This document shows positions 1,718 through 10,364 of a stretch of 10,382 bases of DNA, piece by piece (position 1 is the stretch's first letter; each line of letters begins with the position of its first letter). A program made the position numbers and the translations under genes. This DNA comes from an uncultured Deinococcales bacterium (GTDB lineage: Bacteria; Deinococcota; Deinococci; Deinococcales; JAAFIG01): NCBI GenBank assembly GCA_964247135.1, contig CAXTTL010000174.1:1-10382 (forward strand). Reading direction: 5' to 3'. Under the pieces are notes generated by a model. It was not told the origin of the DNA and made no database searches. It worked only from the letters and a program-made list of their open reading frames with translations.

Positions 1718-1763
1718 CCTCCGATTCAGAGTGTTGCAAAATAGCCGTTGCTCGAGCGTTGCT
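1718..1763 (-). promoter_or_regulatory. Promoter cassette copy 1: direct-repeat box (1763-1746), -10-like AACACT (1735-1730), RBS GGAGG (1722-1718)
   Basis: Minus strand reads AGCAACG ctcg AGCAACG gctattttgc AACACT ctgaatc GGAGG aaagactg ATG. The box sequence and the 10/7-nt spacing are identical to copies 2 and 3. Confidence 0.85.
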
Positions 1764-1771
1764 CAAAGCCA

Positions 1772-1801
1772 AATACTGTCCAGAATTGCACAAATACCAG
1801 T
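1772..1801. promoter_or_regulatory. Second upstream conserved element containing the dyad GTCCA-N4-TGCAC (1778-1791)
   Basis: 24/30 identical to 4103-4132, at the same distance from the direct-repeat box. Confidence 0.65.
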
Positions 1802-1813
1802 CCCTCAGAAACG

Positions 1814-3217
1814 TTATGACACAGTTCTCAGGCGGGTTTTCCGAGGACGGAATCGATCCCAGAGCGTTTTGCTTCGTTTTTGTCCTGTCACAATTGCTTC
1901 CAGGGTATCCACAGCGTAATTCACCTCATCGAGCGTGTTGTAAAAGTAAAAACTGAGGCGACAACTTGCCGGAGGGGTCAATTTGAGTGCGTGATGTGCC
2001 AGCGTCGCGCAGTGACAACCTGCTCGAGATTCCACGCCAGCCTCGTTCAGGGCTTGCGCCAGACCCATTGGGTCGTGTCCCACAATGTTGAAGGCAACCA
2101 ACGACGTGCGCCGGGCTGCATCTTTGGGTCCGTAAATGGTGATGCCAGGAATTGCCGCCAGCCTCTCGAGCGCTCGGGCTGTCAGTTGCTTGTTCCAGGC
2201 GCTGATACGGTTCATGGCAGATTCGACCATTTGACTTTCGATGGGCTTGGCGCTTTGAAAATACGTCAGCCGTTTTGGGTTTAACGCCAGATCAAGCACC
2301 AAACGCAAGGCTTGACCCGAAATGATCGTTCCCAAAATGTTTGGTGTTCCCGCCGCGTACTTCCACGGCAAGGCGTTGTAGGCTACGTGCTCGGGAAAAA
2401 CCTGCCCTTCGGCAATCATGTCCCCGCCGTACAAAAACGGTAAGGAAGTCTCGAGCAGGTGTTCTTTGGCGTACAAGACACCGTTTCCAAACGGGGCTAA
2501 AATTTTGTGAAACGAAAACGAGAGGTATTCGACATCCAATTTTTGCACATCCACAAATGAACTCGGCACCAATTGAGCACCATCAATCAGCAAATAAGAC
2601 CGTTGTTCACCGCTCGGTTGCAGGTAACCGCTCGAGTTTGCCAGAGTCCGAATCGTTGCCAGTGGGTTGCGCGTTCCAAGAAAATTAGACGCACCGGTAC
2701 AACACACCAGCTTGGTCCGCGAATCAATCAGCGAAGCCAGATGCTCGAGATCAAGTTCGCCTGTAACAGGATCAAAACGCACCAAACGGTATTCGACGCG
2801 CCGACCAAACTTGGGCAGGATTTCGCGGCACATCGCGTACCACGGGACGTAATTCGAGTTGTGTTCCATCAGGGTTGTGACCACGTTATCGCCGTCCCGA
2901 AATTCGGTTAAGAGCGAGTACATGACCGCATTGTGCGCTTCGGTGGTGTTTCGGTACACGGCAATGTTGCGTCGGCTTGGCGCGTTAATAAACCTCGAGA
3001 TCGTATCGTAAGACTCCTCGAACAGTTTGGTCATGGCTTGCGACGCGTCGGATTGCCCGCGATGCACGTTCTCGTATCCAGGTGCGAGTTGCTGGTACAA
3101 CGCCAACAACTCGCGGGGCGGTTGGGTGCTGGCGGCGTTGTTGGTCACAATTCGACCCGATTTTGGAAAGCTGAAATGCTCGCGGATGGCTTTGATCTCG
3201 AGTGTGTCCGAACTCAT
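1814..3217 (-). CDS. Class V PLP-dependent enzyme, SufS/CsdA-like (group II) cysteine desulfurase homologue, 467 aa, with atypical motifs
   Basis: Motifs NNAASTQ, NVHRG, NTTEA, EHNSNYVPW, DGAQ, FSFHK (PLP Lys at 2506-2504), GGDMI, AGTPN, RAGCHCA (catalytic Cys at 2011-2009) and RLSFYFYNT. Start moved from the track's 3265 to ATG 3217, which follows AAGGGAG. Confidence 0.88.
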   Translation of the reverse strand: MSSDTLEIKAIREHFSFPKSGRIVTNNAASTQPPRELLALYQQLAPGYENVHRGQSDASQAMTKLFEESYDTISRFINAPSRRNIAVYRNTTEAHNAVMYSLLTEFRDGDNVVTTLMEHNSNYVPWYAMCREILPKFGRRVEYRLVRFDPVTGELDLEHLASLIDSRTKLVCCTGASNFLGTRNPLATIRTLANSSGYLQPSGEQRSYLLIDGAQLVPSSFVDVQKLDVEYLSFSFHKILAPFGNGVLYAKEHLLETSLPFLYGGDMIAEGQVFPEHVAYNALPWKYAAGTPNILGTIISGQALRLVLDLALNPKRLTYFQSAKPIESQMVESAMNRISAWNKQLTARALERLAAIPGITIYGPKDAARRTSLVAFNIVGHDPMGLAQALNEAGVESRAGCHCATLAHHALKLTPPASCRLSFYFYNTLDEVNYAVDTLEAIVTGQKRSKTLWDRFRPRKTRLRTVS

Positions 3218-3403
3218 AATGCTCCCTTCGAGCGGTTCAGGAGAGATATTAGGCTCGAGTTTCAAAGCCCGAGCTTGTTGGATAAAATGAGGTTCAAATC
3301 TGATAGTTTGTTTTCGACTTGGTTTTGCTGCTTGTTTTGGACAGCTCGAACCGCGCCAACGCCCGAGTGTTCAAGAATTCAAGCTCGAGTTCATTTTCTT
3401 GGT

Positions 3404-4042
3404 TCAGGGCAACTTCGAGAACGCAAATTTGGCAACGGTTTTGGTCGTCTCGAGCGCACCTTGTTTGGGTTTCCAAGCCATCACCTGATAAAAAACGCTG
3501 CCTTTGAGCGCGAGCAGCATCGCCATTTTCAGCGCGGGCTTTTGTTTTGGTTTTGTGCCTTCAATCGATTTGGCGCTGTCGCCAAAGCCTGTGATCGGCT
3601 TGAATTTCCCACCTTCAAAACCGCCCTCGAGCAAGGGCAGAAATTCGAGGGTTTTGTTCCAAGCTTTTTGGGCGGCAGCACGATTGGCAGAAACGCTGAT
3701 TGACAGCCCCAAGAACATGTTCGGTGAGTCTTCACCCTCAAGGTTGAAGCCTTTTGGGGCGTAAGAACAATCGTATTTGATCGTGCCGTCCGAGAGCGGC
3801 TCTTGGGCGGCTTTTTGTTGCAAGCCTACCCCGATCAAACGTGTTGCGTCCGAAAGCGTGATGATCTGGCAAGGGTCAATGGTTTTGGGTGCGGCGCTCG
3901 AGGAAGTGCTCAAAAGGATGAACATTGCGGTCAGGCTCGAGGTGAAGTGTTTGGGTGTTCGCAATCTTTTTTGAAAACCAGATGCCAACTTCAGCGGTAA
4001 AGTTACAATTCTAGTCCATGATTTTTTTTGCTGCATGTTCAT
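3404..4042 (-). CDS. Exported hypothetical protein, DUF3558-like, 212 aa
   Basis: ATG 4042 lies 6 nt after GGAGG. A long basic N-region is followed by a hydrophobic stretch (SLTAMFILLSTSSSAA), then DPCQIITLSDATRLIG...YDCSY, a Cys-pair pattern resembling DUF3558-type proteins. The family call is tentative. Confidence 0.75.
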   Translation of the reverse strand: MNMQQKKSWTRIVTLPLKLASGFQKRLRTPKHFTSSLTAMFILLSTSSSAAPKTIDPCQIITLSDATRLIGVGLQQKAAQEPLSDGTIKYDCSYAPKGFNLEGEDSPNMFLGLSISVSANRAAAQKAWNKTLEFLPLLEGGFEGGKFKPITGFGDSAKSIEGTKPKQKPALKMAMLLALKGSVFYQVMAWKPKQGALETTKTVAKFAFSKLP

Positions 4043-4048
4043 GACCAA

Positions 4049-4094
4049 CCTCCAAAGCACAGGTTAGAAAAACTGCCGTTGCTCGAGCGTTGCT
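4049..4094 (-). promoter_or_regulatory. Promoter cassette copy 2: direct-repeat box (4094-4077), -10 TAACCT (4066-4061), RBS GGAGG (4053-4049)
   Basis: Minus strand reads AGCAACG ctcg AGCAACG gcagtttttc TAACCT gtgcttt GGAGG ttggtc ATG. Confidence 0.88.
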
Positions 4095-4102
4095 TAATTG
4101 AG

Positions 4103-4132
4103 AACACCGTCCAGAACTGCACGAATGTCAGT
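4103..4132. promoter_or_regulatory. Second upstream conserved element containing the dyad GTCCA-N4-TGCAC (4109-4122)
   Basis: aacaccgtccagaactgcacgaatgtcagt versus aatactgtccagaattgcacaaataccagt at 1772-1801. Confidence 0.65.
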
Positions 4133-4174
4133 TGACCGAACGGTATTCTCGAGCCGAAGCGGTGTTTGCTTTGG

Positions 4175-6769
4175 TTAAGCTGGAACGCCCACCGTGATCG
4201 AAACGCTATCGGTTCCGTGTAGGTTTTCGGGGTCTGTGACCATCAACTGAAGTTTCAAGATTCTGGCTGGAGCGTCACCAAAGCCGTAATCGGCTGGGAC
4301 AATGCAGGGCAATGATTTTTGCAAGAGCTTGCAGGTTTTGGGTTGAATCACTTGCGATGTCCCGTTTGGGAAAATTATTTTCCACTCGAGAACGTACTGA
4401 CTTGTTGGCGTGCCACCTGGGTCATCTATCGTGTAAAACAAGTAAATGAGGGCGCTCGAGCTTGGGTGCTGCGAGCCGTCCGCTGGACCAGTGATCTTGA
4501 CCGTGGGTGGTCCACTGATGGGTTTTGGCACGACGCTCAGGTTGATCGAGGCTGTTCCTTTCAGACCGTAAGCATCAGTTCCAATCAAGGTAATGGTGCG
4601 TGTTTGATTCGTGGTGAAGACATAATCAAATTCGCAACCGCTGCTGGGCATGGCAGCGTCGCTCGGATTGCTGCTCTTCCAGACAAGGCTGGTGCAAGGC
4701 AACGAACCAAAAATACCGTCACCGTCAACCGAACTGCCTTTGAAATGCACGCTGGTGCTGTTTGACCAGAGCGGCGTTGGGTCGCTCGAGACGGGCGAAT
4801 CAATATAGACTTTGGGCGCAAGATTGATGCCTGTGACGGTAATGCTGGCGCTGACTTGAGCGCCCTTGTCGTCGGTGGCGGTTGCCGTAATCACCCGCTT
4901 GCCTGGTGTGGCAAAACCTTTGCTGATGCTCTCTCCTGTGCCAAGGTCGCCGTCCACGTCAGAAGTCCAGTTGACCGTCGGTGTTGGACCGTCCGAGTCG
5001 AGCGCGTTTGCAGTGTAGGTGGTCACTTGCGCGAAGGGAAAGCTCGAGTTGTTGCTGGGCGCAGTGATTTGAATGCTTGGCACAGAATTGGGCGTGCTGT
5101 TGTATTCGGCGCTGGGATGAGAGGCAAAGACCGTGACCTGCGTGAAGTAGGCTTTTGCCCAACTGACCGGAACGTACACAAAACCAGCATCGCCCCAGCA
5201 GTACCCCCACGAGTTCTTGATGATAAAGTATCCGCCGTCTGAGGTTGCCGCCAGGGTTTTGTAATCGCTCGAGAGGTTTGGGTTCGCTTGAAACTCGTCG
5301 TTCGAGACGAAGCCTACCACCTGAACAGCATGTCGCCCCCAGTTGTTGACATCTGAAAGTGTGGTCACATAACCCTGATTGTTTGGGTATTTGAAGCCGA
5401 TTTTCATCAACAGACCCGCAACCATCGGCTGACCTTGCTTCAGAAACTGGCGCATCTCGTCTACAGGCAAACCAAAAGCGTCGTTGTACCAGTCAAAGAT
5501 CGTATTGGGTTTTGATTCTTTAAAACGCTCGCCGCTCGGGGTCGGCATCGTGAAACCGCAAACACTGAACCCAGTTATGGAGGTGCAGATTTCTTTGAGT
5601 TGATGTGAGGAATCCGAGCAAAACTCGGCGTATCCGTTGCAGGATTTGGCATAAAACTCGAGGTTGGTGTTTTCCAGGCGCTTCAAGGATGGGTTGTAAT
5701 TCCAGGTTTGCTCGAGTGGCAGGGCGTAATGTTGCTCTTGAAAATCTTCGGCACGGTTGGGCAAGATTGCGCCGTCACCGTATTCTCTGGGTTGCCATTC
5801 GGCAGCAATCTTGCCCCACAAGAACTGCTCGGACAGGTTGACCCACCGGCTCTTTTCGATGGCTATCCGGGTCTCGAGCGCCGCAGTCAAAGCAAATGCC
5901 ACACACGTTCCGCGACGGTTGCCTTGGGCTTTGACGCTGGTGGAATAAAACTTGGAACGCCACCAGAAATTCTGGTATAAACCGTTTGGCGTGTGTGCTG
6001 TACAATCTCCAGCGTGATCTGATCCCAAACCAGAACCCTCTTCATCGCTTGGTTTGCTTGGAAAACCAGGGGGTTTGGCATCGGCTGGAACGTCTCGAGT
6101 TTGCACGCCAGAGCTGATTTGACGCGCATCCAACAGTTCGGCGGGATTGGCATTCAAGATTTTACCAAGCTCATTTCTTGCCTTCAGCAGCGTCTCGAGG
6201 TTGGCTCCGATCAGGCTGTCTGGGGTTGGCAAGCTGGGTTTCAGGGCAACCGAGAGTTCGTCGTAACTGGTGCGGTAGGCTAAAAGTTGGTTGTTCGGGT
6301 CTTCAAACTTTTTTCGTGATGCCAACATATCGCCGTACAGCGCAGGCTTGCCATCGGTGACCACCTGAAACGATCCGTTGTTGCCCTGAAGGGTCAGCAG
6401 GTAATTCCCATCGCCCAGAACTTGCAGGTTTGGGTCAGTTGGGTCAGGCTCGAGCAACGCTTTGTTGTACGCGGGTGATTGCAGCGCAAGGCGTTTGACC
6501 TCTGCCGTATTCGCCTGGATTTGAGCCTCCGCCTTTGCCTTGCCTTCACTGCGAAGTTTCAGGGTGTCCAAAGCGAAACCCTCAAAACCCGCCTGGCGTT
6601 TGAATTCCTCGGGCGTGACCATGTTTGCGCCGTCTGGGACTGGACCACCGAAAGCATTTTCTGGCTTCAGGATCGGGTCTGTGTTGCCTGGTTCGCTCGG
6701 GCACGCCACCAGACCGATTGACAGGGCGATAAGACTTAAGGGGATCAGCAATCTGAGAAATCGTTTCAC
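4175..6769 (-). CDS. Lipoprotein with a papain-like C1-family cysteine peptidase domain and three C-terminal Ig/PKD-like domains, 864 aa
   Basis: GTG 6769 lies 7 nt after GGAGG and gives MKRFLRLLIPLSLIALSIGLVAC (lipobox). C1 motifs are QGNRRGTCVAFA (Gln 5926-5924, Cys 5905-5903), LSEQ, HAVQVVGF (His 5332-5330) and IIKNSWGYCWGDAGF (Asn 5215-5213). The C-terminal modules start PSIQITAP, PKVYIDSP and PTVKITGP and contain ATATD, LIGTD and LMVTD strands. Confidence 0.92.
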   Translation of the reverse strand: MKRFLRLLIPLSLIALSIGLVACPSEPGNTDPILKPENAFGGPVPDGANMVTPEEFKRQAGFEGFALDTLKLRSEGKAKAEAQIQANTAEVKRLALQSPAYNKALLEPDPTDPNLQVLGDGNYLLTLQGNNGSFQVVTDGKPALYGDMLASRKKFEDPNNQLLAYRTSYDELSVALKPSLPTPDSLIGANLETLLKARNELGKILNANPAELLDARQISSGVQTRDVPADAKPPGFPSKPSDEEGSGLGSDHAGDCTAHTPNGLYQNFWWRSKFYSTSVKAQGNRRGTCVAFALTAALETRIAIEKSRWVNLSEQFLWGKIAAEWQPREYGDGAILPNRAEDFQEQHYALPLEQTWNYNPSLKRLENTNLEFYAKSCNGYAEFCSDSSHQLKEICTSITGFSVCGFTMPTPSGERFKESKPNTIFDWYNDAFGLPVDEMRQFLKQGQPMVAGLLMKIGFKYPNNQGYVTTLSDVNNWGRHAVQVVGFVSNDEFQANPNLSSDYKTLAATSDGGYFIIKNSWGYCWGDAGFVYVPVSWAKAYFTQVTVFASHPSAEYNSTPNSVPSIQITAPSNNSSFPFAQVTTYTANALDSDGPTPTVNWTSDVDGDLGTGESISKGFATPGKRVITATATDDKGAQVSASITVTGINLAPKVYIDSPVSSDPTPLWSNSTSVHFKGSSVDGDGIFGSLPCTSLVWKSSNPSDAAMPSSGCEFDYVFTTNQTRTITLIGTDAYGLKGTASINLSVVPKPISGPPTVKITGPADGSQHPSSSALIYLFYTIDDPGGTPTSQYVLEWKIIFPNGTSQVIQPKTCKLLQKSLPCIVPADYGFGDAPARILKLQLMVTDPENLHGTDSVSITVGVPA

Positions 6770-6776
6770 GTCACTA

Positions 6777-6822
6777 CCTCCAGGCAGTAACTTAGGAAAC
6801 ATGGCGTTGCTCGAGCGTTGCT
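6777..6822 (-). promoter_or_regulatory. Promoter cassette copy 3: direct-repeat box (6822-6805), -10 TAAGTT (6794-6789), RBS GGAGG (6781-6777)
   Basis: Minus strand reads (regulator TAA) tttcg AGCAACG ctcg AGCAACG ccatgtttcc TAAGTT actgcct GGAGG tagtgac GTG. Confidence 0.88.
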
Positions 6823-6827
6823 CGAAA

Positions 6828-9800
6828 TTAAAGTGTCAGCAGGTCGCGGTTTTTCTCGAGGAATGACTTTTGCAATTCAGGGAAATCATTGAGGGTTGCC
6901 GCCATCTCGAGCACAAGTTTTTGGGCAGATTGGCTCACCTCGAGTGCTTTTTCAAGTTTCCCTGTTGTTTCAAGCGCAAAGGCGAGCACCCGACGCAACT
7001 CGAGGGTTTCAAGGGTTTGCACCTTGACCGAAACCCGCTCCAGTGCTTGAGCAATCATTTCATCGGTCAAACGATTTAGGACTGTCAATGCCCGAAGTTC
7101 GGTGGCTTGTAACCAAACGACATAGCGTTCTGCCTGCGGTTTGGTCTCGAGCACGCTCAGGGCTTGGGCTGGTTGATCCAACATCAAATACGCCTGCGCT
7201 TTGTACAGCAACTCGAGGTCGTGATCGTCGGCATTTGGGTTTTCGGTCTGGGTTTCCAGCAAAACCTGCAATGCCTCGAGCGGTTGGTTTTGGAGCAGCA
7301 GCCTTTGGGCGCTCAGGCAGCAACTCCAGGCGACAAATTCGCCGTGTTCAGCTTCGATCAGGGTCGCGGCGCGTTGCAAATATGGTTCAGCGCCCAACAG
7401 GTCATTGAGGTTCATGTGAAGTTCTGCCAGGTTCAAGCCGCACAGGATGACTTCATGAAGCAAATTTGCAGCTTCAGCCGTCTGAAATGCGTTTTGGTAG
7501 GCAGCCAAAGCTTTGCCGTATTGCCCTTGTTCTTCAAAAATCGTGCCGAGCGTGTTGTACGCCTGGCTTCGCAGGTGCGGATTGCGATCTGCGCCAGGTA
7601 ACGTCAGGCTCTCTTGAAGCTGCGAAATGGCTGCTTCGGTTTTGTTCAGGCGGTTGAGCGCTCCAGCCAAATTGATCAGAATGTGTTGTTGATGCTTTAT
7701 TGCACCCGTTTCTCGTGCCAAATGAAGGGCTTGCTCGAGCAGTGCTTCAACTTCGGAACTTTCCCCCAGCCGCCAATGGATTGAAGCCAGGTTGGTCAGC
7801 ACGACAATTTGATTTTTGGTATTGCCAATCTGCTCGTTCAGGGTTTTGACAAACCGAGTATGCAGCAGCGCCTGCTCGAGATGCCCTTGTTGCAAGGAAG
7901 TCTCCTTTAAGAGACCATGCAGTTGCGCTTGCATGGCGGGATTTGGTTCGTGATTTGAGTTTAGTGCTACTTGGGCAACCTGTTCTGATTCGCTCAATTG
8001 TCCAAGTCGCAGGAGGGCGAAAGCACACTCGTACTGCGCTTGGATGCTGAGATCGGCAGGCAGGTCAGTCAAGGATAAGATCGTTGTTGCCAGTTGCCTG
8101 GCTTCCTGATAACTGCTTTGCGCGTTGCAAGTTTGGCAACGAAAAAGCGTCACGATTGCCTGAGCCGTGCTTGTGCCAAGTCGCTGACTCAAGCGCTCGA
8201 GTTCAAGGATTTCAAGTTCAAGTTCTGAAATCTGGTTGAGTGTCAACCAGATTTTGGTACGGGCTTCGTGAATCTTGAAAGCCACCTCATCCATTGCATT
8301 GTCCTCGAGCGCCTTGTGGTATTGCTCGAGGGCTTCTTGGTTCGCATACACTTTTTCTGCCGCTTCTGCCGCCTTCACCCGCCACGTCACAGCCTCGAGC
8401 TTTAACCCCGCTTTCTCGAGATGATTTGCAATTTGTGCGGGTTGAGAAGCGGTTTTCTCGAGACTCGTTGCCAGTTTTTGGTGCAGCAATTTCTTGCGCT
8501 CGTTTGAGAGGTTTTCTTCAATCGAAGATCCTATCAGGTCGTGCGCGAACTTGTAACCTTCAGAGAACGGCTCGAGGATTCTGGCTCGAATCGCGTTTTC
8601 CAGCCCTTCCAGTCCTTCCCATTCGTTTAAGGCTGTCGCGCCCTGAAGCGTCTCAAGGCTGAAACCGTCACCGGTCAGGCTTGCAGCCTCCAAAAGTCGT
8701 TGCGAGGGCGCTCCCAGGCTTTTGACGCGACGAAGCACGGCATCGCGGACGCTGGGCGGGATGGGCAGTTCGGCGTAATCGCTGGTTTCATTGTCGAACG
8801 GCGTGATCCAACCGCCACTCGAGTCCAGTGTCAAAAGTTCAGTGTCGAATAAATTTCGGATCGTCTCGAGCGCAAAGAACGGGTTGCCGCCCGTGGCATG
8901 GTGAAGGCGTTTGGAAAAAAGCGTTGCGCCATCCGCACCAGAAAGTCCGCGCACCAACTCGAGCACATCGTTTTCGGCGAGCGGCTCGAGTTCGATCAGC
9001 ACAGCTTGACCGCTGGCGACGAATTGTTCGATCATGCTTTGGGTATCGGCTTGCAAATCGCCGCGCCTGAAGGCGGCAATCAAGTGCTTGCCGCCAGTTC
9101 CCAAAAAGCGCTGCGAGGCGTACAAGCCCAACTCGAGGCTTGCGGCATCAAAAAACTGCATGTCATCGCTGATCAGGATTGGCAAATCGCGCAAAACCAG
9201 CATCACCAGTTCGACGAAGGCGTTAAAAAACCGCAGGCGCTCTTCAAGCGAACCAATCAGTGGCGGCGGTTCACTCGAGAGTGTTGGCAGCAACCTCGAG
9301 AGTTCACGCTTGACCCAAACGGGCAATTCGAGCCTCGGGTGTGCCTCGAGTAAATCTGAGATGGTACGGATTGCGGTGGAATACGGCGCGAGGCTGTCGC
9401 CTGGTCGTCCGGTGTTCTGATGAAATGCGCCCTTGGTGGCGGCAAACTCGAGCATCAACCGTGTTTTGCCAACCCCAGGTTCGCCAGAAATAAAGATCAG
9501 TTGTCCCGCACTCCAGGCGGCTTCCATTTGCGCCCACGCCTCAACCCTGCCGACCAGAGGCGCGGTGCGTGGCAGCAACAACGCCTGACTCGAGACTCGA
9601 GTTTGCGCTTGAGGCATCAGGGTTTGCGCCGCCCGAATTTGCCTTGCCAGTTCCAGCGTTTCTGGCAGAGGCTCGAGCTTGAGTTCGGTATTCAGAATGA
9701 CCTTGAAGCGTTCAAATTGCTCGAGTGCCGCCTCGCGTTCGCCCAGCAGGTAATGCAGCCGCATGATTTCACGGTGTTGCCGCTCTTGAAGTTCGTCCTG

Positions 9801-10364
9801 TTCGAGCAATTTTAAATGCAGTTCGAGCGCCCGCCGCCATTCACCGCGAACCTCGAGGCGTTCGGCGAGATCGAGCATGGCTTTTTTGTAGAGTCGCTCG
9901 AAAAACCCGCGTTTGACTTCCAGCCATTCGTCAAAACCGCTCGCGCCCGAAAGCGCTAAACCCTCGAGCAAAACACCCTTGTACATTTCGAGCGCCGTCT
10001 CGGGGTCATCTCCAGCGACCGCATTTAAGAATGTTTGAGCATCGCTCGAGAATGGCTCAGCCAAACGCAGGTCATCACCCACCGATTCGCAACGCCCCTC
10101 GAGTTGTGGGGTTTTGGTTTTCAGGCGGTGCAACTCACGACGCAAATTGCGCCGCGCCGAATCCTCATCCAGATCGCTCCAAAGTAAACCCACCAGCTTA
10201 CTTCTGGGGGTCGAACCTTCAAGCGCCAGGTACGCCATCAGGGCGAGCACTTTTTTGAACGATAATTTTAATTCCTGGTCATTCAAAACCAGTCGAGCCG
10301 AACCCAAAAAATGACTCTCGAGCGCATTGTGCGGCGTCATCTCGAAGTCTGGCTTCAGCGACAT
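6828..10364 (-). CDS. SARP-like transcriptional activator: N-terminal wHTH + BTAD, STAND/AAA ATPase, C-terminal TPR array, 1178 aa
   Basis: FLGSARL..KVLALMAYLAL..RSKLVGLLW..ARRNLRRELHRL (SARP wHTH). ALEMYKGVLLEG..FDEWLE..LLEQDELQERQHREIMRL..ELKLEPLPET (BTAD). LVGR, Walker A GEPGVGKT (about 9485-9462), Walker B LISDDMQFFD, TGGNPF (STAND GxP), FAHDLI, then TPR-like helices such as AYNTLGTIFEEQGQYGKALAAYQNA. Confidence 0.93.
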   Translation of the reverse strand: MSLKPDFEMTPHNALESHFLGSARLVLNDQELKLSFKKVLALMAYLALEGSTPRSKLVGLLWSDLDEDSARRNLRRELHRLKTKTPQLEGRCESVGDDLRLAEPFSSDAQTFLNAVAGDDPETALEMYKGVLLEGLALSGASGFDEWLEVKRGFFERLYKKAMLDLAERLEVRGEWRRALELHLKLLEQDELQERQHREIMRLHYLLGEREAALEQFERFKVILNTELKLEPLPETLELARQIRAAQTLMPQAQTRVSSQALLLPRTAPLVGRVEAWAQMEAAWSAGQLIFISGEPGVGKTRLMLEFAATKGAFHQNTGRPGDSLAPYSTAIRTISDLLEAHPRLELPVWVKRELSRLLPTLSSEPPPLIGSLEERLRFFNAFVELVMLVLRDLPILISDDMQFFDAASLELGLYASQRFLGTGGKHLIAAFRRGDLQADTQSMIEQFVASGQAVLIELEPLAENDVLELVRGLSGADGATLFSKRLHHATGGNPFFALETIRNLFDTELLTLDSSGGWITPFDNETSDYAELPIPPSVRDAVLRRVKSLGAPSQRLLEAASLTGDGFSLETLQGATALNEWEGLEGLENAIRARILEPFSEGYKFAHDLIGSSIEENLSNERKKLLHQKLATSLEKTASQPAQIANHLEKAGLKLEAVTWRVKAAEAAEKVYANQEALEQYHKALEDNAMDEVAFKIHEARTKIWLTLNQISELELEILELERLSQRLGTSTAQAIVTLFRCQTCNAQSSYQEARQLATTILSLTDLPADLSIQAQYECAFALLRLGQLSESEQVAQVALNSNHEPNPAMQAQLHGLLKETSLQQGHLEQALLHTRFVKTLNEQIGNTKNQIVVLTNLASIHWRLGESSEVEALLEQALHLARETGAIKHQQHILINLAGALNRLNKTEAAISQLQESLTLPGADRNPHLRSQAYNTLGTIFEEQGQYGKALAAYQNAFQTAEAANLLHEVILCGLNLAELHMNLNDLLGAEPYLQRAATLIEAEHGEFVAWSCCLSAQRLLLQNQPLEALQVLLETQTENPNADDHDLELLYKAQAYLMLDQPAQALSVLETKPQAERYVVWLQATELRALTVLNRLTDEMIAQALERVSVKVQTLETLELRRVLAFALETTGKLEKALEVSQSAQKLVLEMAATLNDFPELQKSFLEKNRDLLTL

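Follow-up and report, generated by a model that had tools for sequence, protein, structure and literature searches.

The closest described relatives of the system reported here are regulators of antibiotic pathways in actinobacteria, above all AfsR of Streptomyces coelicolor, which acts at the afsS promoter. The afs box, in the promoter description of PMC10936776, spans 22 bp (−40 to −19) and consists of two 11-bp repeats (−40 to −30 and −29 to −19), the first 8 bp of each being contacted by a protomer; the account of the same repeats in PMC11301090 places them eight nucleotides before the −10 element, with a −35/−10 spacer of 20 bp. From these partial coordinates the −10 element would lie at −12 to −7, and the 3′ repeat would therefore start 17 nt before it. 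Autoinhibition of AfsR through its NOD and TPR portion is relieved by ATP. For ActII-ORF4 and DnrI, the binding-site section of PMC6510168 gives a repeated heptamer, TCGAGXX, with 4-bp spacers. SARP surveys, to the extent described in PMC7040171, cover actinobacterial clusters and do not reach Deinococcota, and our literature search, which fell short of most subscription papers, found no description of BTAD/SARP boxes in that phylum. Here, we analyse a 10,382-nt contig from an uncultured Deinococcales bacterium (CAXTTL010000174.1; the window), in which three identical copies of an 18-bp direct repeat, the box, accompany the gene of a large SARP-type regulator. We conclude, with a probability of roughly 0.85, that the three boxes are activator sites of this adjacent, AfsR-type regulator.

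The box and its promoter setting

The window is the entire contig C174 of the source assembly, G000 (5,091,702 bases, 386 contigs, 84% complete); C-numbers denote contigs, L-numbers loci of relatives, and G259 a near-complete genome of another family. The 18-mer AGCAACGCTCGAGCAACG occurs at 6822–6805, 4094–4077 and 1763–1746, always on the − strand, and behind each copy come 10 nt, a hexamer (TAAGTT, TAACCT and AACACT, respectively), 7 nt and GGAGG, so that the arrangement reported in the initial annotation was confirmed at all three sites. Box 1 (6805–6822, AGCAACG-ctcg-AGCAACG) lies 5 nt past the regulator stop codon and is identical in the orthologous loci L001 and L002; its promoter comprises a putative −10 element, TAAGTT (6794–6789), assigned from the TANNNT consensus and from related boxes, and a GGAGG Shine–Dalgarno sequence (6781–6777). 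The hexamer and GGAGG lie at 4066–4061 and 4053–4049 behind box 2 (4077–4094), and at 1735–1730 and 1722–1718 behind box 3 (1746–1763), all on the − strand.

The 18-mer is not scattered over the genome: the whole assembly holds three copies, all on the window contig, and the gapped form AGCAACG-N4-AGCAACG is also found three times. With the genome's excess of CTCGAG built into it, an order-5 Markov model predicts 0.038 copies; three copies with fixed geometry are not a chance occurrence. A spacing grid for AACG-N7-AACG-N(a)-.A...T-N(b)-GGAG in the source genome gave four matches at a = 10, b = 7 and one at a = 10, b = 8, with three in total in the other 61 of 63 cells. A genome scan blind to genes, requiring only a perfect 7-mer repeat ending in CG and a TANNNT hexamer, peaked at a period of 11 and a gap of 9 or 10 nt (4 and 8 matches, 12 together; 0–3 in each of the other 43 of 45 cells).

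The operator had initially been described as an invariant 18-bp element, which is too broad. The central CTCG is constant only in the source genome and its two nearest relatives, and other GCAACG boxes carry CTTA, CATC, CTGG, CTTT, CACT, CCCG or CTCC; judged by these variants, the conserved operator unit is two 7-mers, with a spacer free to vary. The likeness to ActII-ORF4 and DnrI seen in a central TCGAG does not survive either. This string combines the spacer with the start of the second half-site, and related boxes do not retain it; it is also without weight because CTCGAG is the commonest hexamer of the genome, with 33,925 sites (6.7 per kb), 72 of them in the window. CTCGAG also stands at 5–11 per kb in L001–L005, and in the source genome the palindromes GAGCCC/GGGCTC, CGTACG, CCGCGG and GCATGC are strongly avoided.

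The promoters show the features of SARP promoters: repeats with an 11-bp period, a 3′ repeat at a fixed distance from the −10 element, and a poor, overlapped −35 region. No −35 element is in fact present, the nominal position reading CGCTCG, and a generic sigma-70 scan missed all three window promoters, as would be expected. In Deinococcota, according to the promoter data of PMC12340547 that we draw on, the −10 element is TANNNT and lies 6–7 bp ahead of leaderless starts; because several related boxes likewise have an ATG 6–8 nt after the hexamer, the 7-nt gap here most likely means that the mRNA begins at its own Shine–Dalgarno sequence. A 7-nt gap is common in relatives, not fixed.

Box geometry varies among clades. 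Some have 9 nt, not 10, between box and −10 element, often at leaderless targets, both in the source genome (C79, C341, C6, C206 and C173) and in L079, L080, L085, L088, L092 and L132. In one clade (L087, L089, L093, L096 and L098) the box is asymmetric (CGTTACG or CGTCACG, ctcc, AGTAACG) and is maintained in different genomes.

The regulator and the linkage of box type to clade

The regulator gene (6828–10364, − strand) encodes 1178 amino acids: an OmpR-type winged helix followed by a BTAD domain at about residues 10–245, a central P-loop ATPase of the STAND type with intact Walker A (GEPGVGKT, 294) and Walker B (ILISDD, 396) motifs, and C-terminal TPRs. All the parts of the large SARP architecture are thus in place. 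Pfam assigned BTAD (PF03704, 9.8e-14, above cut-off), AAA_16 (2e-12) and TPR_12 (1.3e-11), and gave no match to NB-ARC (PF00931) in the regulator. A profile of 84 rows built for the N-terminal domain matched AfsR (8hvr) with an E-value of 1.2e-16 over aligned positions 3–232, the whole SARP domain, and EmbR (2fez) at 5.8e-14. The predicted AlphaFold structure of this domain (pLDDT 94.8) pointed the same way, with AfsR (8k60) as the best Foldseek match (E 3.6e-10, TM 0.68) and AfsR or EmbR as all six matches below E 0.001.

For the linkage analysis we took the best 80 among 150 matches listed (frames of about 900 amino acids or more; 30 further exist) and nine more regions. The sampled loci and the source genome together hold 108 regulators, 96 of which are full length with 200 nt of flank and form the linkage set. 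A 3′-end box, defined as lying within −25 to +200 of the regulator stop with half-sites required only to end in CG, was found at 31 of the 96, compared with 9 of 675 other long open reading frames (ORFs), all from the source genome. A further 10 regulators have a box in a divergent promoter, and in the source genome alone a 3′-end box accompanies 7 of 18.

Box sequence follows regulator descent. Beyond the required CG, A occurs at half-site position 5 in 84/84 and G at position 2 in 81/84, giving the consensus nGnnACG. Positions 3–4 track the clade (GCAACG with the recognition helix RNLRRELHRL, GGAACG with xNLRKE.FRL, GCTACG with RNLRQRLYRL), and the first base tracks the subclade, being A in the window, L001, L002 and L053 and C at C76. 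When the helix columns are left out of the tree, nine box types are distributed over 59 rows with 13 changes. The clade assignment also holds for boxes that the first rule had overlooked (two CGCAACG beside RNLRREL[HY]RL, five GGAACG beside xNLRKE.FRL). The full GCAACG promoter pattern gave 16 matches among 301 genomes of the order, spread over 10 genomes and four families, and the reversed pattern gave none; one further reversed-pattern control was uninformative, since GCAACG reads the same backwards. A generalised promoter pattern was found in 5 of 101 genomes. Among the 12 pattern matches outside the source genome, six adjoin a regulator, two lie up to 5 kb behind one, two about 10 kb before one, and two, both in G259, far away.

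Recognition-helix positions W+17 and W+14, which align with S91 and T88 of AfsR, share the highest mutual information with box positions 3–4. We considered a residue-level recognition code, which the data do not support: independent pairs are too few (1–3 on starred branches), prediction from the helix alone equals that from the rest of the domain (37/59 each) and is not separable from kinship, and His at W+17 as a code element has three counter-examples.

The source genome contains 29 ORFs that match the N-terminal domain at E < 1e-4. The paralog on C76 combines the same recognition helix, RNLRRELHRL, with a CGCAACG box and, behind that box, a peptidase 63% identical to target 1 (below); cross-talk is therefore likely, and the paralog probably cross-reads the window boxes. 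In L079, a box behind one SARP–STAND gene leads into a second SARP–STAND gene, a possible cascade.

Putative targets, a duplicated promoter and a recurring small protein

Target 1 (4175–6769, − strand), behind box 1, is an 864-residue lipoprotein with the lipobox LVAC, a papain-family C1 peptidase (Peptidase_C1, 7.2e-11; catalytic triad C289, H480 and N519, numbered from the GTG start) and C-terminal PKD/Ig domains (PKD_4 at 1.4e-4, below cut-off). Target 2 (3404–4042, − strand; 212 amino acids) has a long N-terminal region with a possible signal peptide ending SSA-AP and is probably exported. It belongs to no Pfam family, and a search with it as query found no homologs in 18 of 18 family relatives; the ESM Atlas placed it in unnamed clusters (0.95), and DUF3558, assigned to 11% of one of the clusters (0.89), is a lead only. 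Target 3 (3–1709, − strand), cut by the contig end, is a lipoprotein with the lipobox LAAC and Ig-like repeats; its L002 ortholog has 945 amino acids and ends in a right-handed beta-helix (Beta_helix, 5.1e-12). The tandem Ig-like units in target 3 are encoded by an internal 240-nt repeat (240–367 and 480–607, 74% identity).

Between targets 2 and 3 lies a gene for a cytoplasmic, SufS-like class V aminotransferase (1814–3217, − strand; PF00266, 7.6e-84), without a box of its own. The protein stays under all NCBIfam cut-offs; close homologs occur in 1 of 18 relatives and as a second copy in the source genome (C140:5170-6531, 80% identical), in unrelated neighbourhoods. No terminator-like site was found in the 186-nt gap before the gene, and folding of the gap is not unusual (z −1.0); the gene might share a transcript with target 2, from box 2, or be transcribed separately.

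Lipoproteins predominate behind the boxes: they are the first gene behind 13 of 18 GCAACG-type boxes, compared with 85 of 1299 Shine–Dalgarno-led long ORFs of the source genome, called by the same crude rule; the 18 boxes, from sampled loci, are kin and lead mostly to two or three protein families. The initial annotation went further and described a regulon of exported proteins only. A purely exported regulon is not supported: L002, L141 and C281 have a small cytoplasmic ORF behind the third target, the SufS-like gene stands in the cluster, and at 3 of the 18 GCAACG-type boxes of relatives the ORF behind the box is a non-exported one. GCGACG and GTGACG boxes of the source genome, on C68 (three sites), C53, C6, C197 and C104, precede other small cytoplasmic ORFs, of an MKNHEVEFRI type and a KRA-rich type, and, on C104, the gene of a small membrane protein that resembles, by eye, a multidrug exporter.

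All three promoters are present, but two of them are not independent. The flanks of promoters 2 and 3 (copies 4094 and 1763) agree at 44 of 66 bases, and the two are therefore duplicates; copy 1 is without this flank, matching copies 2 and 3 at 10–12 of 40 upstream bases. Since all 18 box bases survived the duplication while a third of the flank changed (18/18 vs 44/66, naive P 7e-4), the box appears to have been under selection. In L002 the peptidase gene is directly followed by the Ig lipoprotein gene, with a single promoter between them that matches copy 4094 upstream (34/40) and copy 1763 after GGAGG (12/14). The 2331-bp unit between the duplicated promoters, which holds target 2 and the SufS-like gene, is on the simpler reading an insertion in the source lineage; the alternative is its loss from L002 by recombination.

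A strong RNA hairpin (4100–4150, − strand; z −5.9, 0/200 shuffles) lies between the peptidase stop codon and box 2 and may be a 3′-end stem-loop, acting as terminator or stabiliser. It folds intact in L002 and is truncated to its right part at copy 3, the duplicate of promoter 2. The hairpin stops 5 nt short of box 2, which puts the stem-loop of one transcript right against the promoter of the next. An extra motif upstream of boxes 2 and 3, considered as the site of a second factor, is this right hairpin part carried along by the duplication.

Behind the third-target lipoprotein in L002, L141 and C281 stands an ORF for a cytoplasmic protein of about 67 residues ending in GLK, in L002 28 nt past the lipoprotein stop. 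C281 overlaps the cut end of the window by 140 nt at 92.9% identity; as the overlap is not exact, C281 is possibly a strain variant. Its colinearity with L002 extends over 2861 nt. The family has 55–70 residues, often a C-terminal GLR or GLK, and is often the first gene behind a box. Copies lie in the source genome on C281 (1249–1513, − strand, from the contig start), C5, C10, C13, C27, C30, C79 and C341, and in relatives in L002 (from about 18921), L137, L140 and L141. A hidden Markov model (HMM) of 18 small ORFs returned eight in the source genome, six directly behind a BTAD gene, one about 3 kb behind and one on C281. It gave 18 matches in five other genomes, two of which had been used to train it; 15 of these matches have a BTAD gene no more than 10 kb away, such zones making up about 7% of the DNA, and one of the three remaining matches sits just behind a GCAACG box. 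The family counts 1416 representatives at E ≤ 0.001, with members labelled hypothetical. All 7 of 7 locus copies and 27 of 28 representatives examined fell in no Pfam family; the remaining representative had two weak matches below cut-off. The predicted structure consists of three strands and a helix (pLDDT 76); a fold search with this model gave a best Z of 4.0 and no clear match, and a literature search, short of most subscription papers, returned nothing on the family.

From its position, one might guess that the small protein feeds back on the activator. A bolder and doubtful extension is that Deinococcota carry a dozen or more insulated SARP–STAND channels per genome, each made up of a sensor-activator, its own nGnnACG variant, surface hydrolase or adhesin lipoproteins and a box-driven protein of about 60 residues that feeds back on the activator. 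If the small protein is such a dedicated modulator, it would supply a part so far missing from bacterial STAND transcription switches; the regulator–box pairs would then amount to a readable specificity map for SARP winged helices.

Competing explanations and comparison with known systems

Several observations weigh against the assignment of the boxes to the adjacent regulator. A loose-consensus scan of the source genome gave 32 sites, barely above the 5–27 of controls, and therefore only strict box forms discriminate. Under the strict rule 55 of the 96 regulators have no box; moreover, the 96 are related by descent, and their control comes from a single genome. The N-terminal domain as a single sequence misses Pfam Trans_reg_C and, with phmmer, AfsR, the search against the Protein Data Bank returning designed TPRs only, so the link to AfsR needs a profile or a fold. 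In G259, all four GCAACG-N5-GCAACG sites (C1 175617, 2574468, 2620453 and 2804795), each with a −10-like hexamer at 10 nt, lie at least 227 kb from any listed regulator; adjacency of box and regulator is therefore not a rule. The arrangement suggests a dispersed, candidate trans-acting regulon of that genome's single RNLRRELHRL regulator, at C1:2267449.

This dispersal also speaks for a reading of the window boxes mainly in trans, by another winged-helix factor such as the C76 paralog, with its identical helix and CGCAACG box, or a response regulator of the OmpR/PhoB type; the PhoB box, as outlined in PMC1906773, has 8-bp repeats, 3-bp linkers and 10 bp before the −10 element, within one base of the window spacing. 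We regard this as improbable: box 1 stays 5 nt from the regulator stop in G000, L001 and L002, the first box base follows the subclade (A here, C at C76), and the type of box changes from one BTAD clade to the next, a pattern for which a shared response regulator could not account. No receiver domain was found among the five window proteins scanned. The operator is most likely that of the adjacent BTAD–STAND–TPR protein, as first proposed, by geometry and linkage, although the C76 paralog argues against exclusive ownership. Still less probable is that the adjacent protein binds the boxes and represses until induced. The box does overlap the −35/spacer region, the usual repressor position in the treatment of PMC7040171, and Deinococcus promoters can work from a −10 element alone on the evidence cited from PMC12340547; against this, a repressor would not need the fixed 9–10 nt to the −10 element seen across clades, the window promoters have no −35 element, and in AfsR the BTAD is the polymerase-contacting domain. 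Least probable, and strongly disfavoured, is that the 18-mer identity is a functionless by-product of promoter duplication and a drive towards CTCGAG. Copies 2 and 3 are indeed duplicates and CTCGAG is the commonest hexamer, but copy 1 has no flank in common with them, the Markov expectation is far below three copies, and the half-sites persist with other spacers in other families of the order.

For activation by the adjacent regulator, the sequence, spacing, domain make-up and linkage of box type to clade are established, and the steps of the mechanism are modelled on AfsR. Two winged-helix/BTAD units would sit side by side on the 7-mers at about −40 to −34 and −29 to −23, stand in for the missing −35 element and bring RNA polymerase with sigma-70 to the TANNNT hexamer. 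Transcription would start 6–7 nt past the hexamer, at the Shine–Dalgarno sequence or one base before it. The STAND and TPR domains would hold the activator off until ATP and a ligand switch it on. The output would be a cell-surface kit of a papain-type lipoprotein, an Ig/beta-helix lipoprotein and an acquired exported protein, to which the end of the third unit would add the small cytoplasmic protein that recurs beside these regulators. Many cassettes of this kind would exist side by side in the family, this locus among them, and each regulator clade would retain an nGnnACG variant of its own.

By homology with AfsR, the core mechanism appears to be one already known; the novelty lies in the box repertoire of the whole family and in the small partner gene, the latter being the least explained part of the system. 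These findings extend the promoter grammar of Streptomyces antibiotic regulators to Deinococcota, where, with a box beside each regulator gene, regulons become readable from sequence. Dozens of natural regulator–box pairs make it possible to test how SARP helices choose their repeat and what the TPR ligand of large SARPs is, which for AfsR is unknown according to the relevant passage of PMC10936776.

AfsR (PDB 8k60, 8hvr and 8jke) is the closest counterpart, with the same wHTH–BTAD–STAND–TPR order, the same N-terminal fold and a poor −35 element. By the published partial coordinates, the two systems agree in the 17 nt from the start of the 3′ repeat to the −10 element (9 + 8 there, 7 + 10 here), and AfsR T88, S91 and R92 align with helix positions W+14, W+17 and W+18. 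The afs core CGTTCAGC, taken from the PMC10936776 numbering, has only G2 in common with AGCAACG on the coding strand here; an alternative register, CG-N5-CG-NN, considered for its likeness to AfsR, was dropped, since by that numbering the 7-mer starts at repeat position 1. Unlike AfsR, the window regulator belongs to another phylum, has about 21–24% identity to it and an AAA_16-type rather than NB-ARC Pfam match, is predicted to control lipoproteins instead of an antibiotic pathway, and is one of many paralogs with different boxes in one genome. The predicted SARP fold is shared with EmbR of Mycobacterium tuberculosis (2fez, 2ff4; E 1.9e-9, TM 0.69–0.71), which carries an FHA sensor where the window regulator has STAND–TPR. 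ActII-ORF4 and DnrI sites, as far as their description goes, have the same layout of heptamer, 4-nt spacer and heptamer upstream of the −10 element, but TCGAG is repeated there, whereas it occurs once per box here and is absent from most related boxes; the proteins are without the STAND/TPR part. PhoB and its pho box, again as outlined in PMC1906773, share the OmpR-type winged helix and 11-bp-period repeats about 10 bp before the −10 element, whereas PhoB is a two-component receiver protein with a different core sequence and no BTAD.

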